Shown here in pieces: positions 17,499-25,212 of a DNA stretch of 52,788 nucleotides. The DNA is from Candidatus Uhrbacteria bacterium (GTDB lineage Bacteria; Patescibacteriota; Patescibacteriia; JACQRZ01). How positions within the stretch are numbered: position 1 is the stretch's first letter; each line of letters starts with the position of its first letter. The DNA lies in NCBI GenBank assembly GCA_016206175.1, contig JACQSB010000002.1, forward strand, positions 1 through 52,788, given 5' to 3'. The notes beneath the pieces were generated by a model. The model had not been told where the DNA came from. It searched no databases and saw nothing but the letters and a program-made list of their open reading frames with translations. A program made the position numbers and the translations under genes.

Positions 17499-17527
17499 TT
17501 GACAAAAAAAATGCCAGAACGTATGAT
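17499..17527 (+). promoter_or_regulatory. sigma70 promoter of the TrmB-glmS operon (near-leaderless)
   Basis: TTGACA-17 bp-TATGAT; ATG is 8 nt downstream. Confidence 0.7.
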
Positions 17528-17535
17528 CCCGGAAT

Positions 17536-18306
17536 ATGCATACCGATACCGAGCTCAAGCAACTCCTCATTCGCAGCGGCTTTGATGAAAAGGCAGCTCG
17601 CATTTATCTTGCGCTTCTTGCCAGCGGTCCTTCTCCTGTGCGCCGTGTTGCTGACGCAATCGGCGTAAATCGCGGTACGACGCATACCCTCCTGCGTGAT
17701 CTTGTAGCGCAGGGGGTCGTCAGTTATTACCATAAACAGAAGCGCAAATATTTTGTTGCAGAAGACCCGGAAAAAGTCCTCACGTTACTCCAAGATAAAA
17801 TTGCCGATTTTCAAAAGACGTATCGAGAGCTTGAGTCGCGCATCCCCATGCTGCATTCGTTATATGGCCAAGCGGTGGCAAAGACATCTGTTCGTTCATA
17901 TGAAGGCAGGCACGGAGTTCGTATCGTGCTAGAAGACGTGCTTTCTGAAATGCGGCGAAGCAGTGAAAAACTGTATCGCGTGTATTCATCAGTTGCGGTA
18001 CGTGACGCACTGCATCGGTGTTTCCCCTCTTTCACGAAAGAACGCATCAAACACAACATCTTTGTTCGCGTGATAGCCATCGGCGCCGGCGGAGAATATC
18101 AGGAACATGCTGATCGGCGGTGGCTTCCAGCGGAGCGCGGCACGCCCACCTACCGTATTTTATACGCCGGCAATGTGGTGCATATCAGCAAAAGCGAACA
18201 TGCCGACGAATTGCACGCGTTTGTCATTCGCGACAACGAAATCTATAAAACCGAGGTTATTATTTTTGATCAGCTCTGGACAGCTCTCGACCCTCACTCA
18301 TCCTAA
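17536..18306 (+). CDS. TrmB-family transcriptional regulator
   Basis: GFDEKAARIYLALL...GVNRGTTHTLLRDLVAQGVV winged HTH, YFVAEDPE, YEGRHGVR, C-terminal effector domain ending IFDQLW. Confidence 0.88.
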   Translation: MHTDTELKQLLIRSGFDEKAARIYLALLASGPSPVRRVADAIGVNRGTTHTLLRDLVAQGVVSYYHKQKRKYFVAEDPEKVLTLLQDKIADFQKTYRELESRIPMLHSLYGQAVAKTSVRSYEGRHGVRIVLEDVLSEMRRSSEKLYRVYSSVAVRDALHRCFPSFTKERIKHNIFVRVIAIGAGGEYQEHADRRWLPAERGTPTYRILYAGNVVHISKSEHADELHAFVIRDNEIYKTEVIIFDQLWTALDPHSS

Positions 18307-18330
18307 AGCCTAACCCAACAGCCTCCTCCT

Positions 18331-20805: not shown

Positions 20806-21816
20806 ATGAATACGTTTCTCCAACAGTTGCGCGCGCGCGCGACGCAAGGGTTTGTGCGGACTATTATTTTCCCGGAAGCGCAGGACGAACGCGTTGTTGC
20901 GGCTGCCGCAATCTTACGCGAAGAAAACATCGTACGCCCCCTGTTTGTGGGTACTTCCCAAGATGCTGCGCGCATACGAGAGCTCGGTTTTGATTGTGCG
21001 CAGATCGAAGAAGAACGCGCCAATGAGCTCGAACATATTCTAGCGGATGCGCGGTCCTCCAAGATCGGCACAAAAGATGAGCTCACCAGTGACGCGGCTC
21101 GGCTATTAGCGCATGACCCGCTTTTTTACGCCATGTATTTATTGAGGCTCGATTCCGGAGACGGCCTTGTTGCCGGCGCTGTGCGGCCTACTGCGGATGT
21201 TGTACGCGCAGGTCTTTGGTTGATCGGAAAGGCAGCAGGCATTCGGACTGTTTCCAGTTCCTTTTACATGGTCCTTCCATCGTTTCGCGGCACTGCCTCG
21301 GAGGAAGTTTTAAGTTTTGCCGATTGTGCAGTTGTGCCTGCGCCAACTGCAGAACAGCTTGCTGATATTGCCATTGCGGCAGCTCGCGCGCGCGAAAAGA
21401 TTGTCGGCGATGAGCCGCGCGTTGCGCTTCTTTCATATAGCACAAAAGGTTCGGGCGGAGACGACTCTTCTATTGCTGTTGTCCGTTCTGCATTGCAGAT
21501 CGTGCGCAAGCGCAGACCGGAGATCATCATCGACGGAGAACTTCAGGTGGATACGGCATTGATTCAATCGATCGCCAATCGAAAAGATCCAGATGGCTTT
21601 CTTGCGGGCCTGGCGAACGTTTTGATCTTCCCTTCGCTTGATGCAGCAAACATCGCCTACAAGCTTGTTGCTCATCTTGTCCCCGGCGCGCAGGCTTTGG
21701 GGCCGCTTTTGCAAGGCATGGCAAAGCCGATGAGCGATCTTTCCCGCGGCGCGTCAGTGCAAGATATCGTCTCTATCGCAACAATGGTCGCATCGCAGGC
21801 AAGCAAGCGCGACTAA
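20806..21816 (+). CDS. pta: Phosphate acetyltransferase
   Basis: [68 protein letters not shown]...DLSRG. Confidence 0.95.
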
Positions 21817-21820
21817 TCCT

Positions 21821-24205
21821 ATGCAGAATAGTAAAACAACAAAACAATATCTACCCAAAGATGTCGTGAAAAAAATCGACGAATATTGGCGCGCGGCGAA
21901 TTATTTGTCTATTGGCCAGATTTATTTGTACGACAATCCACTCATGAGGCATCCGTTATCCCAAGATGACATCAAGCCACTCTTGATGGGGCACTGGGGG
22001 ACTACGCCGGGACAGAATTTTATCTACGCGCACCTCAACAGAATTATCAAACAGTACGATCTGGACACGATATACATTTCCGGTCCCGGACATGGCGGAC
22101 CCGCGTTGATTGCGAACACATATTTGGAAGGTACCTACAGTGAGGTTTATCCTCACATCAGCCAGAATGAAGAAGGGATGAAAAAATTATTCAAACAGTT
22201 TTCTTTTCCGGGGGGTGTGCCGAGCCACGTTTCTCCGGAATGCCCCGGGTCAATCCACGAAGGAGGCGAGCTTGGATATTCCTTGAGCCATGCCTTTGGC
22301 GCTGTATTTGATAATCCTTCCCTCATCAGCGCGTGCGTCGTGGGAGACGGAGAAGCAGAGACGGGTCCTCTTGCAACAGCATGGCATTCGAATAAGTTTT
22401 TGAATCCTCAAACTGACGGTGCAGTGTTGCCGATCCTTCACTTGAATGGATACAAGATTTCAAACCCGACACTCTTCGCTCGTATCTCGCGAGAAGAATT
22501 AGATCAGCTATTCCGCGGTTACGGATGGACACCGCATATCGTAGCAGGCGATGATCCTATCGCAATGCATCATGCAATGGCGCGCACGCTGGACGGTTGC
22601 ATTGATGAGATCAGACGCATCCAAAATGATGCGCGACAGCACAATGCTCTGACACGCCCGCGATGGCCCATGATTATCTTAATCACTCCGAAAGGATGGA
22701 CAGGCCCAAAGATGATTGATGGCAATGCAAACGAAGGGACGTTTCGATCCCATCAGGTTCCCTTTGCGGACGTAAAGACAAATAAAGATCACTTCGATCA
22801 ATTCGTTAGATGGTTGAAGAGCTATAAGCCGGAGGAGTTATTCGATGCTGCTGGGGGATTGCGACCGGATCTTCGCGATCTTGTTCCAACGGGTGCGCGG
22901 CGCATGGGCGCAAACCGGCATGCAAACGGCGGACTGGTATTGCGTGATCTTATCTTGCCTGACGGTAGCAACTACGCTGTACAGTTTTCAAAGCGCGGAG
23001 AGCAGCACGAGGGAGCTACGCATGTATTCGCTCGATTTTTGCGTGATATAATTAGGGAAAATGAGGAGCATCGAAACTTTCGTATATTCGGTCCGGATGA
23101 AATACTGTCGAATGGATTGGGAGCGATATTTGAAGCGACAAACCGTCAGTGGATGGCTGAACTGAAAAGCAGTGATGAGTTCTATGCACCGTACGGTCGT
23201 GTGATGGAGGTCTTAAGCGAGCACCAATGCCAGGGATGGCTGGAGGGCTATCTTCTCACCGGACGTCACGGGCTTTTTACCAGTTATGAAGCGTTCATCC
23301 ATATTGTAAGCTCGATGTTCAATCAGCATGCCAAATGGTTGGATACTACTTCTCGTATTCCGTGGAGAAAACCGATCGCATCACTCAATTACCTCATCAC
23401 TTCTCATGTATGGAGACAAGGGCACAATGGCTTTACGCATCAGGACCCAGGATTCATTGACCACGTGTATGTGAAAAAAGCGGATATCATCCGCACCTAT
23501 CTTGTGCCGGACGCGAATTGTCTTTTGGCAGTGATGGCAACGTGCTTTTCAAGCAAGCACAAGATTAATATCGTAGTGGCCGGCAAGCATCCGATGCCGC
23601 AATGGTTTTCAATGGAAGAAGCGATCCGCCATTGCCAAAAAGGGATCGGCGTTTTGGATTGGGCAAGCAATGACGGCGGAGACGAGCCCGATGCAGTGCT
23701 TGCCTGTGCAGGAGATGTGCCGACACTCGAAACGCTCGCGGCAGTTTCAATCTTGCGTGAGCATCTTCCCGAGTGCAAGATTCGCGTCGTCAATATCGTG
23801 GATCTCATGACATTGCGGCCGCGTAAAAACCATCCGCATGGGCTCGAGGATGCAGAGTTTGAAACCTTTTTCACAAAAGATAAACCGATCATCGTTATCT
23901 TTCATGGCTACTCATCGCTCATCCATCGGCTTACCTACCGCCGTCCCAATCATGACAATATGCATGTGTACGGATATCAGGAGGAAGGCACAACGACTAC
24001 CCCGTTTGATATGACAGTGCTCAACGCCATTGATCGTTATCATATTGTCCAGTATGTCGTTGATTCCCGCTCCGATAAGGGTGAGAAGGAGTTGCGCCTT
24101 TCACGCCTTATGGAAGAAAAGATTGCCGCCCATCGTGCGTATGTTGTCGAGCATGGCCAGGACCTGCCAGAGATACGCAACTGGCGGTGGGGTCAGAATG
24201 TATGA
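21821..24205 (+). CDS. xfp: Xylulose-5-P/fructose-6-P phosphoketolase
   Basis: [79 protein letters not shown]. Confidence 0.97.
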
Positions 24206-25212
24206 AGACAAAGAAACACATTGTCATCATTGGCGGGGGCACGGGGACATTTACGTTGCTGAAGGGTCTTCATTCGTTTCCTATCAAAATTAGCGTCATT
24301 GTCTCAACCGCAGATAGCGGCGGCTCCACTGGCGTCCTTCGCAACGAGCTCGGCGTCATGCCTCCAGGCGATTTGCGGCAATGTCTGCTCGGCCTTTCAC
24401 AGGCGGATCCGTTGTTGCAGCATCTATTTGGTTATCGGTTTGACCGAGGATTTTTGGAAGGCCACACTATCGGCAATATCATCCTTGCTGGATTGGAGCG
24501 AATTACAGGAAGCAGTGAGGCGGCAGTACGCGAAGCCTCACGTCTCCTGAAAGTGCACGGTTCCGTAGTGCCGGTCACGAAGAAGCCGACGACTTTAATC
24601 GCAATTCTTGAAAATGGACGCCGAATCGTTGGAGAACATTTCATTGATGAACCAAGGCACGATGGCACGTTGCGCATTCGTTCTCTTGTACTTACGCCTT
24701 CCGGTTCCGCAAATCCAGATGCTCTCCGACTGATCAAAACTGCGGATGCCATTGTTTTCGGCCCCGGAGATTTATTTACCAGCACGCTGCCGAATATTAT
24801 TGTTGATGGGATGGCGCAAGCGATTCGTTCATCGCGTGCAAAAAAAATTCTCGTGACCAACATCATGACGAAGTATGGACAGACTCATGGGTTTACGGCG
24901 AGTGATTTTCTAACAACGCTCGAACAGTATCTTACAACAAAAATAGGAGAAAAGATTATCGATACGGTAATCGTGAATACAAAAACGCCGCCGCAATCAG
25001 TGTTGGTAAAATATAAAAAGGAACATGCTCTGCCGGTTGTTGCGGACAAGCATGAATTGGCGCGGCGCGGAGCGGCTGTCATTACTGGCGATTTTCTTTC
25101 TCGTGATCCTATAAAAAAACAGATGGGCGATGAATTAAAGCGCAGCATGCTACGCCACGATTCGGTAAAAACCGCCCGTGCGATCGTATCGTGTTTGAAA
25201 CGTTACCCTTGA
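24202..25212 (+). CDS. yvcK: YvcK/GlmR family (CofD-like) UDP-sugar-binding protein
   Basis: [54 protein letters not shown] overlap with xfp. Confidence 0.92.

Follow-up and report, generated by a model that had tools for sequence, protein, structure and literature searches.

This study concerns contig JACQSB010000002.1 of the Candidatus Uhrbacteria assembly GCA_016206175.1, analysed over its full 52,788 nt (hereafter the window), and in particular a unit of six genes in which genes assigned to amino-sugar synthesis stand next to genes assigned to the formation of acetyl-coenzyme A (acetyl-CoA). The window is the entire contig C7 of an assembly of 934,165 bases in 29 contigs, estimated to be 77 % complete and 0.6 % contaminated (G000 in our collection; other genomes and loci bear G and L numbers, respectively). 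The unit occupies positions 17536–25212 of the forward strand, on which all six genes lie, i.e. trmB (17536–18306), encoding a TrmB-family winged-helix regulator of 256 aa; glmS (18331–20154), encoding a glutamine–fructose-6-phosphate transaminase of 607 aa; a gene here termed AT (20157–20804), encoding a stand-alone left-handed beta-helix (LbH) acetyltransferase of 215 aa; pta (20806–21816), encoding a phosphate acetyltransferase of 336 aa; xfp (21821–24205), encoding a xylulose-5-phosphate/fructose-6-phosphate phosphoketolase of 794 aa; and yvcK, also named glmR (24202–25212), encoding a member of the CofD-related family of proteins binding UDP-GlcNAc (uridine diphosphate N-acetylglucosamine), of 336 aa. 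The common orientation and the tight spacing had been reported in a preliminary description of this DNA, with which the coordinates of the open reading frames (ORFs) agree: the intergenic gaps measure 24, 2, 1 and 4 nt in order, and xfp and yvcK overlap by 4 nt as ATGA. The unit displays the sequence hallmarks of an operon, i.e. a single strand, tiny gaps or an overlap, one promoter and no strong internal terminator.

The promoter proposed earlier was recovered in the region 17400–17535 (+), with TTGACA at 17499–17504, a 17-nt spacer and TATGAT at 17522–17527, a match of 11 out of 12 positions. It ranks as the best promoter-like site of the region and is one of two such matches between 15700 and 27800, an interval with 16 promoter-like sites compared with 12.7 ± 3.8 in shuffled sequences, i.e. 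no excess. Its −35 hexamer, together with upstream blocks such as AATTG, AATTTTT.GACAC and TTTCAACA, is invariant across the four species aligned. The trmB ATG starts 8 nt past the −10 hexamer, so that the message would carry no leader or hardly any. Hairpins within the unit are short and only weakly terminator-like (stems of five to six pairs with three G–C pairs), and the next strong terminator (26547–26569) follows the gene at 25348–26520, which has an 11/12 promoter of its own at 25209–25237. Neither a glmS ribozyme nor any other Rfam family was found in the operon, the matches in the window being six tRNAs only. The DNA-binding domain of TrmB is recognizable (PF01978, 36.9 bits against a cut-off of 25.6, residues 14–77), and residues 78–256 match no Pfam or NCBIfam family at E ≤ 0.001, so that no sugar-binding effector domain was recognized. 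The label ‘sugar-sensing’ given to this regulator before is therefore not retained.

The identities previously assigned to the enzymes are in agreement with the profile matches. GlmS scores 791 bits on TIGR01135 (cut-off 418) and has the glutamine amidotransferase domain and both SIS domains. The AT protein matches the archaeal GlmU model TIGR03992 only at positions 215–386 of 393 (174 bits), and its nearest solved structure is 2ggo/5z09, residues 208–376 (E 1e-26). A bifunctional GlmU was considered and rejected, given that no NTP_transferase domain was detected in the 215-aa protein, which corresponds to the C-terminal half only. AT is therefore best described as a putative stand-alone acetyltransferase half of an archaeal-type GlmU, with an amino sugar as its probable substrate. 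Pta matches PF01515 (PTA_PTB) over its full length (297.4 bits, residues 4–328 on profile positions 2–318 of 319), and butyryl-specific models reach at most 64 bits, far under the pta models. Xfp contains all three domains of its family (XFP_N 601.6, XFP 273 and XFP_C 297.4 bits) and scores 1361 bits on NF003619 (cut-off 962); its family membership suggests that it cleaves fructose-6-phosphate or xylulose-5-phosphate to acetyl-phosphate. YvcK belongs to the GlmR subfamily TIGR01826 (300.4 bits, cut-off 196).

The arrangement is real DNA and no assembly artefact. A contig of 6318 bases from run X1 spans positions 18273–24576 unbroken, although the window itself may derive from X1, which is thus non-independent. 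Pieces from X2, X3 and X4, i.e. other samples of the same study of groundwater metagenomes, bridge the xfp/yvcK junction, and X3 pieces also bridge the pta/xfp and glmS/AT junctions, in all cases without differences. In addition, a separate metagenome contig of 7747 bases (L058) repeats the order trmB-glmS-AT-pta-xfp-yvcK at 82–85 % nucleotide identity, with protein identities of 91 % for GlmS, 89 % for AT, 83 % for Pta, 90 % for Xfp and 76 % for YvcK. There is no compositional trace of a recent transfer of pta and xfp, whose GC content (0.546 and 0.493) and GC content at third codon positions (GC3; 0.528 and 0.521) resemble those of their neighbours.

It had been proposed that Xfp and Pta act biosynthetically, supplying the acetyl group for glucosamine acetylation, and this is strongly supported by the exchange of gene cassettes that we observed in related species. 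The family comprises 16 species in our collection, and 40 relatives were searched for Pta and Xfp. The preliminary description had counted an absence of the glmS-pta-xfp-yvcK linkage from relatives as evidence against itself and, taken literally, such an absence is what was found, Pta occurring in none of the 40 and Xfp in one (G034, 44 % identity). However, the corresponding slot in the relatives holds other acetyl-CoA enzymes. G001, a species of the same genus with a 100 % complete genome, and G005 keep the order fbaB-...-trmB-glmS-AT-[slot]-yvcK, in which the slot between AT and yvcK contains, instead of pta and xfp, 5.3 kb with five genes. These encode a CcsB-like protein (ATP-grasp_2 and Citrate_bind, i.e. 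a succinyl-CoA-synthetase-like beta subunit with the citrate-binding domain of ATP-citrate lyase), a CcsA-like protein (CoA_binding and Ligase_CoA, the matching alpha subunit), citryl-CoA lyase (ccl; NF004869, 292.8 bits, above the cut-off of 212), a Tdh-like zinc dehydrogenase (best match l-threonine 3-dehydrogenase, 240.8 bits, under the cut-off of 380) and the glycine C-acetyltransferase Kbl (NF005394, 583 bits, cut-off 460). The same genes are spread over three contig pieces in G013, and in G011 they are reordered as tdh-kbl-yvcK-AT-ccsB-ccsA-ccl, with glmS elsewhere. The fbaB gene adjoins trmB-glmS in G001, G005 and G013, and a TrmB homologue stands at the head of the cluster in these three genomes as well as in G202, G600 and others. 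No homologue of the five slot proteins of G001 was found in the genome of the window.

Citryl-CoA synthetase and citryl-CoA lyase together form acetyl-CoA and oxaloacetate from citrate, ATP and CoA, whereas Tdh and Kbl yield glycine and acetyl-CoA from threonine and CoA. The slot can thus be occupied by three sets of enzymes that are unrelated and share no more than the product acetyl-CoA, and this points to a supply of acetyl-CoA to the adjoining acetyl-CoA-using enzyme. As ccs/ccl and tdh-kbl are present in g1 (G001), g5 and g11 alike, the most parsimonious explanation is that pta-xfp replaced them in the lineage of G000 and L058. The flanking GlmS (86 % identity) and YvcK (75 %) of the window are still closest to those of G001. 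As a side observation, the yvcK gene of G001 (L005:2165–3047) is read as two parts (residues 5–211 and 238–334) whose frames are separated by a TAA, which could reflect decay of the gene, a frameshift or an error in the sequence.

Besides its exact recurrence in L058, the pta-xfp arrangement recurs in a variant form in G600, a genome of another class, as trmB-glmS-(639 bp non-coding)-pta-xfp-yvcK-GNAT-glmU N-half. No remnant of AT was detected in the 639-bp gap between glmS and pta (L059:11383–12021), which has stops in three frames and no tblastn match; the gap has the size of a lost acetyltransferase gene.

For a wider survey, 400 further class genomes were sampled evenly, related genomes among them being non-independent observations. 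AT homologues (E ≤ 1e-15) were present in 48/400, and 44 of these 48 genomes were examined, leaving out G294, G306, G356 and G348 with weak matches to long ORFs. A glmS and/or yvcK gene lay beside AT in 19 genomes, 16 of them among the 40 from other families and the remaining three (G001, G005 and G011) from the family itself, G013 being counted apart on account of its cluster in three contig pieces. Nine of the 44 (G001, G005, G013, G011, G202, G067, G203, G125 and G264) carried ccs/ccl or tdh-kbl in the AT cluster. The remaining AT homologues were found after cvpA-tatD-rmuC, in murD-ftsW-AT-murG-murC, by murA, by mraZ, or within other clusters for sugar modification. Their presence in division and cell-wall clusters links the AT family to wall synthesis independently; the loci in question are L047 and L052 (G097 and G146) for murD-ftsW-AT-murG-murC, L056 for AT by murA, and L049, L054 and L057 for AT before mraZ-mraW.

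The same association was seen when starting from the citryl-CoA lyase Ccl, which is present in 29/400 class genomes. Among the 27 examined, ccs/ccl was clustered with glmS, with yvcK or with an acetyltransferase gene in 14, and half of these (G081, G115, G375, G133, G270, G083 and G241, from families f67, f40, f69 and f100) read (trmB/glmU N-half)-glmS-yvcK-GNAT-ccsB-ccsA-ccl. In these seven loci (L086, L088–L093) and in G600 (L059:6689–7021), a GNAT of 110–119 aa replaces the LbH enzyme, encoded between yvcK and ccsB or, in G600, between yvcK and the glmU N-half. All eight aligned GNATs match PF00583, and eukaryotic glucosamine-6-phosphate N-acetyltransferases (GNA1; 1i21, 2vez, 2huz and others) are among the best solved structures for their profile. 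This suggests, as a lead only since GNATs cross-match generally, that some bacteria of the Candidate Phyla Radiation (CPR) may use a eukaryote-like route of glucosamine-6-phosphate acetylation. Overall, the linkage between a cassette and an acetyltransferase extends to at least six families with differing gene orders.

Taken together, our data make it likely that the six genes form a UDP-GlcNAc precursor operon with its own supply of acetyl donor, i.e. Xfp and Pta, placed in an exchangeable acetyl-CoA cassette slot. In the pathway we propose, GlmS would convert fructose-6-phosphate and glutamine into glucosamine-6-phosphate, and Xfp would split fructose-6-phosphate or xylulose-5-phosphate with phosphate into acetyl-phosphate and erythrose-4-phosphate or glyceraldehyde-3-phosphate. 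Pta would pass the acetyl group of acetyl-phosphate on to CoA, and AT would use the resulting acetyl-CoA to N-acetylate the amino sugar, returning the freed CoA to Pta. The acetyl group would thereby derive from sugar phosphate, without oxidation of pyruvate, expenditure of ATP on activation or loss of CO2. Phosphoketolase is practically one-directional, and the flow would thus be fixed towards acetyl-CoA. The interval between AT and yvcK would serve as the exchangeable slot, occupied by pta-xfp here and by citryl-CoA synthetase/lyase plus tdh-kbl in the closest relatives.

The preliminary description had called the operon self-supplying, which goes too far, as the genes for GlmM and a canonical uridylyltransferase lie outside the unit. 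A phosphohexomutase on contig C19, which reaches 350 of the 439 bits required by the archaeal GlmM model, may convert glucosamine-6-phosphate into glucosamine-1-phosphate. There are three stand-alone nucleotidylyltransferases in the genome, of which the copy on C26 fits the archaeal GlmU N-half best (197.6 bits). A second candidate for the uridylyltransferase step is the stand-alone sugar-1-phosphate nucleotidylyltransferase of 278 aa encoded at 28961–29797 (−) of the window (N-half of TIGR03992, 141.8 bits). UDP-GlcNAc could thus be completed by the C26 enzyme or that of 28961–29797 and/or by YvcK/GlmR; a uridylyltransferase activity of YvcK, if present, would account for the presence of yvcK beside an acetyltransferase half that has no uridylyltransferase partner. 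YvcK possibly also stimulates GlmS under the control of UDP-GlcNAc, and the TrmB-family protein may act as repressor or activator of the unit from its single promoter.

Fructose-6-phosphate for both GlmS and Xfp could be provided by the conserved neighbours fbp and fbaB. As noted before, these lie nearby, fbp (13666–14655, +) encoding a class 1 fructose-1,6-bisphosphatase (NF006778, 400 bits, cut-off 368) and fbaB (14665–15741, +) a class I aldolase (NF006707, 610 bits, cut-off 327); the pgk gene (27710–28945, −) was likewise confirmed by a family profile match. Erythrose-4-phosphate and glyceraldehyde-3-phosphate might return via transketolase and aldolase/fructose-1,6-bisphosphatase, or enter the shikimate route, for which AroB is present. 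Of note, the N- and C-terminal halves of transketolase are encoded separately (C15:15139–16981), with a second gene for the N-half at C25:15485–16255. Consumers of the wall precursor are present in the genome, i.e. MurA and MurD-FtsW-MurG-MurC.

Several other features of the window were recorded. A divergent promoter-like site for the gene upstream of trmB is located at 17403–17375 (−), and a 515-aa ORF without family match at 15820–17367 (−), divergent from trmB, is found at the same place in G001 with 56 % identity. The 390-aa ORF at 25348–26520, directly 3′ of yvcK, shows a GC content of 0.596 and a GC3 of 0.724, compared with 0.483 for the genome, and has neither a Pfam or NCBIfam match nor a tblastn match in the locus of G001; it may be a recent acquisition. 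Also encoded in this type of genome is a CofE-like F420-0:gamma-glutamyl ligase (PF01996; 6239–6970), which shares its contig with the CofD-related yvcK. The window also encodes a trehalose-phosphatase and a 760-aa GT20 trehalose-6-phosphate synthase (37857–40912) as well as a UDP-glucose dehydrogenase (32708–34012), so that sugar-nucleotide metabolism appears to be concentrated on contig C7.

Several observations weigh against an operon with a dedicated acetyl-donor supply. The pta-xfp form is rare among species representatives (1/40 relatives with Pta or Xfp), and the same applies to the surroundings of G600, with Xfp in 2/95 genomes of its family and Pta in 1/146 genomes of its class. AT stands without an acetyl-CoA cassette alongside in 35/44 genomes, i.e. 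the coupling is frequent and not universal, and none of the cluster markers was near Ccl in 12 of 27 loci, four of which are on stretches shorter than 9 kb. With respect to the enzymes, Pta stays slightly below the NCBIfam equivalog cut-offs (TIGR00651, 288.9 against 311.2 bits; NF007233, 289.1 against 310 bits), and the AT homologues in L027 and L030 sit in other sugar-modification clusters, which bears on the presumed substrate of AT. That a single RNA spans the six genes is a prediction from their spacing. Finally, CoaE, which concerns the supply of CoA, was not found in the 77 % complete assembly, and the 23 % of the genome that is unassembled could harbour AckA or another route to acetyl-CoA.

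Some of these observations would also fit a general role of Pta and Xfp as a source of acetyl-CoA, serving protein acetylation and other acetyltransferases, in which case their place in the operon would reflect co-regulation with the availability of sugar phosphate. Acetyl-CoA forms a common pool, contig C18 carries one further GNAT gene, and most AT genomes manage without any cassette. However, three unrelated cassettes accompany two unrelated types of acetyltransferase, always in glmS/yvcK clusters and in at least six families, and no acetyl-CoA consumer besides AT and the one GNAT was found among the families searched, which did not include fatty-acid and mevalonate enzymes. We consider a general source unlikely, although it shades into the dedicated supply that we favour.

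An ordinary catabolic phosphoketolase pathway, in which acetyl-phosphate would yield ATP and acetate via an unassembled or another kinase, Pta would do no more than balance the pools and the proximity of glmS would be incidental, is less probable still. Pta is reversible, the assembly is 77 % complete, and phosphoketolase is commonly paired with acetate kinase in the phylum. Xfp was detected in 34/400 sampled phylum genomes (a tally that includes the unpublished G551, used for this count only), and among 20 Xfp loci fetched, ackA was adjacent in 12, 1.3–3.1 kb off in two and, together with pta, missing in five, the last locus being that of G600; in G034, xfp even overlaps ackA. In contrast, ackA is absent from the loci of G000, L058 and G600, and the Xfp proteins of these three, linked to pta, glmS and yvcK, form one clade separate from the ackA-linked copies (support 1.0, FastTree, 23 Xfp proteins), with two ackA-linked copies as its sister. 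The statement that neither the unit nor the window contains ackA holds after a scan of 49 of the 50 called ORFs, and no AckA was found in the 77 % complete assembly by profile or by tblastn. Neither AckA nor pyruvate:ferredoxin oxidoreductase was found in any genome of the family, and of these 16 genomes 13 reach a completeness of at least 90 %, with 100 % for G001.

The genome-wide check that had been suggested for other acetyl-CoA sources gave a similar picture: pyruvate:ferredoxin oxidoreductase, AMP-forming ligase (Acs), ACD/succinyl-CoA synthetase and pyruvate formate-lyase were not found in the 77 % complete assembly. Matches to E1_dh, a possible sign of pyruvate dehydrogenase, were rejected as the halves of the split transketolase, and matches to Aldedh and Fe-ADH, considered as an AdhE-type ethanol branch, turned out to be ProA and AroB, so that no such branch was found.

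The patchy spread of Xfp, and the fact that its closest homologues in a large protein collection (74–79 % identity) bear the source names Parcubacteria, Uhrbacteria, Nomurabacteria, Taylorbacteria and Wildermuthbacteria, indicate that xfp moves within this radiation. A scan of genome contigs for Pta returned only three distant loci (47, 42 and 38 % identity; Gemmatimonadota, Lentisphaeria and a Firmicutes metagenome-assembled genome) and no donor. Even so, and despite a patchy distribution of the cassettes that shows horizontal movement, it is highly improbable that the slot merely tolerates insertions of genes gained by horizontal transfer or that the contig is chimeric, the cassette having no functional link to its neighbours in either case, given the bridged junctions, the repeated order in L058, the neighbour-like composition of pta and xfp and the formation of acetyl-CoA by all cassettes seen in the slot, unlike random cargo.

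To our knowledge, CPR bacteria make peptidoglycan yet generally lack central routes to acetyl-CoA, which raises the question of the source of the N-acetyl groups in their wall sugars. The locus and its relatives suggest a testable answer, i.e. dedicated acetyl-CoA generators wired into the amino-sugar operon of reduced cells, and the natural swap of cassettes in a single slot is unusually clean comparative evidence for such a functional coupling. It is tempting to speculate, at somewhat less than an even chance of being right, that a class-wide acetyl-donor slot is filled by three unrelated generators beside either an LbH enzyme or a GNA1-like GNAT, with acetyl-CoA made mainly for the wall amino sugar and a small, scavenged CoA pool cycling catalytically. 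If so, the cassette carried would report the host or environmental metabolite on which the organism lives, i.e. citrate, threonine or sugar phosphate.

Among known systems, the fermentative phosphoketolase module of the bifid shunt and the heterolactic pathway shares with the operon a full-length Xfp with all three domains, and its first phosphoketolase product is acetyl-phosphate as well. There, Xfp works with AckA, whereas here it is paired with Pta inside an amino-sugar operon, in a genome in which AckA was not found. The two-step path by which Xfp and Pta would lead from sugar phosphate to acetyl-CoA with no carbon lost has its engineered equivalent in the phosphoketolase/phosphotransacetylase bypass, and a Bacillus subtilis strain for GlcNAc production reportedly uses phosphoketolase to raise acetyl-CoA. 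Heterologous expression of the two enzymes has been described as a means of raising acetyl-CoA in metabolic engineering (PMC10126289). The operon would be a natural counterpart of this bypass, differing from it in being operon-encoded and tied to the synthesis of cell-wall precursors, and glmS, AT, pta, xfp and yvcK may offer a minimal gene set for carbon-conserving GlcNAc synthesis. The sister operons (G001, G005, G013 and G011, with GNAT variants in seven further genomes) have the same trmB-glmS-AT...yvcK flanks, the same slot and presumably the same output of acetyl-CoA. In contrast, their substrates would be citrate plus ATP or threonine plus NAD instead of sugar phosphate plus inorganic phosphate, and their cassettes show no homology to Pta and Xfp.

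The YvcK protein of the window falls into the same subfamily (TIGR01826) as GlmR of B. subtilis and Listeria monocytogenes. B. subtilis GlmR is described as binding UDP-GlcNAc and proposed to stimulate GlmS (PMC7525490, PMC6171935), and purified Listeria GlmR as forming UDP-GlcNAc from GlcNAc-1-phosphate and UTP (PMC10128056). In Firmicutes, the gene context is yvcJ-glmR-yvcL (PMC10986989). Here, unlike the Firmicutes gene beside yvcJ, yvcK is coupled translationally to xfp and linked to glmS. AT aligns with the LbH domain (residues 208–376) of the archaeal ST0452 (PDB 2ggo/5z09; TIGR03992), a protein which we take to acetylate glucosamine-1-phosphate; in contrast to ST0452, the nucleotidylyltransferase half is absent from the AT gene, and stand-alone N-halves are encoded elsewhere in the genome. 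Full-text literature searches, with subscription journals and supplements beyond their reach, returned no paper on this operon linkage. While all the enzymes involved are known, what appears to be new is the natural coupling of acetyl-CoA generators to UDP-GlcNAc synthesis within an operon, and their exchange for one another in one slot.

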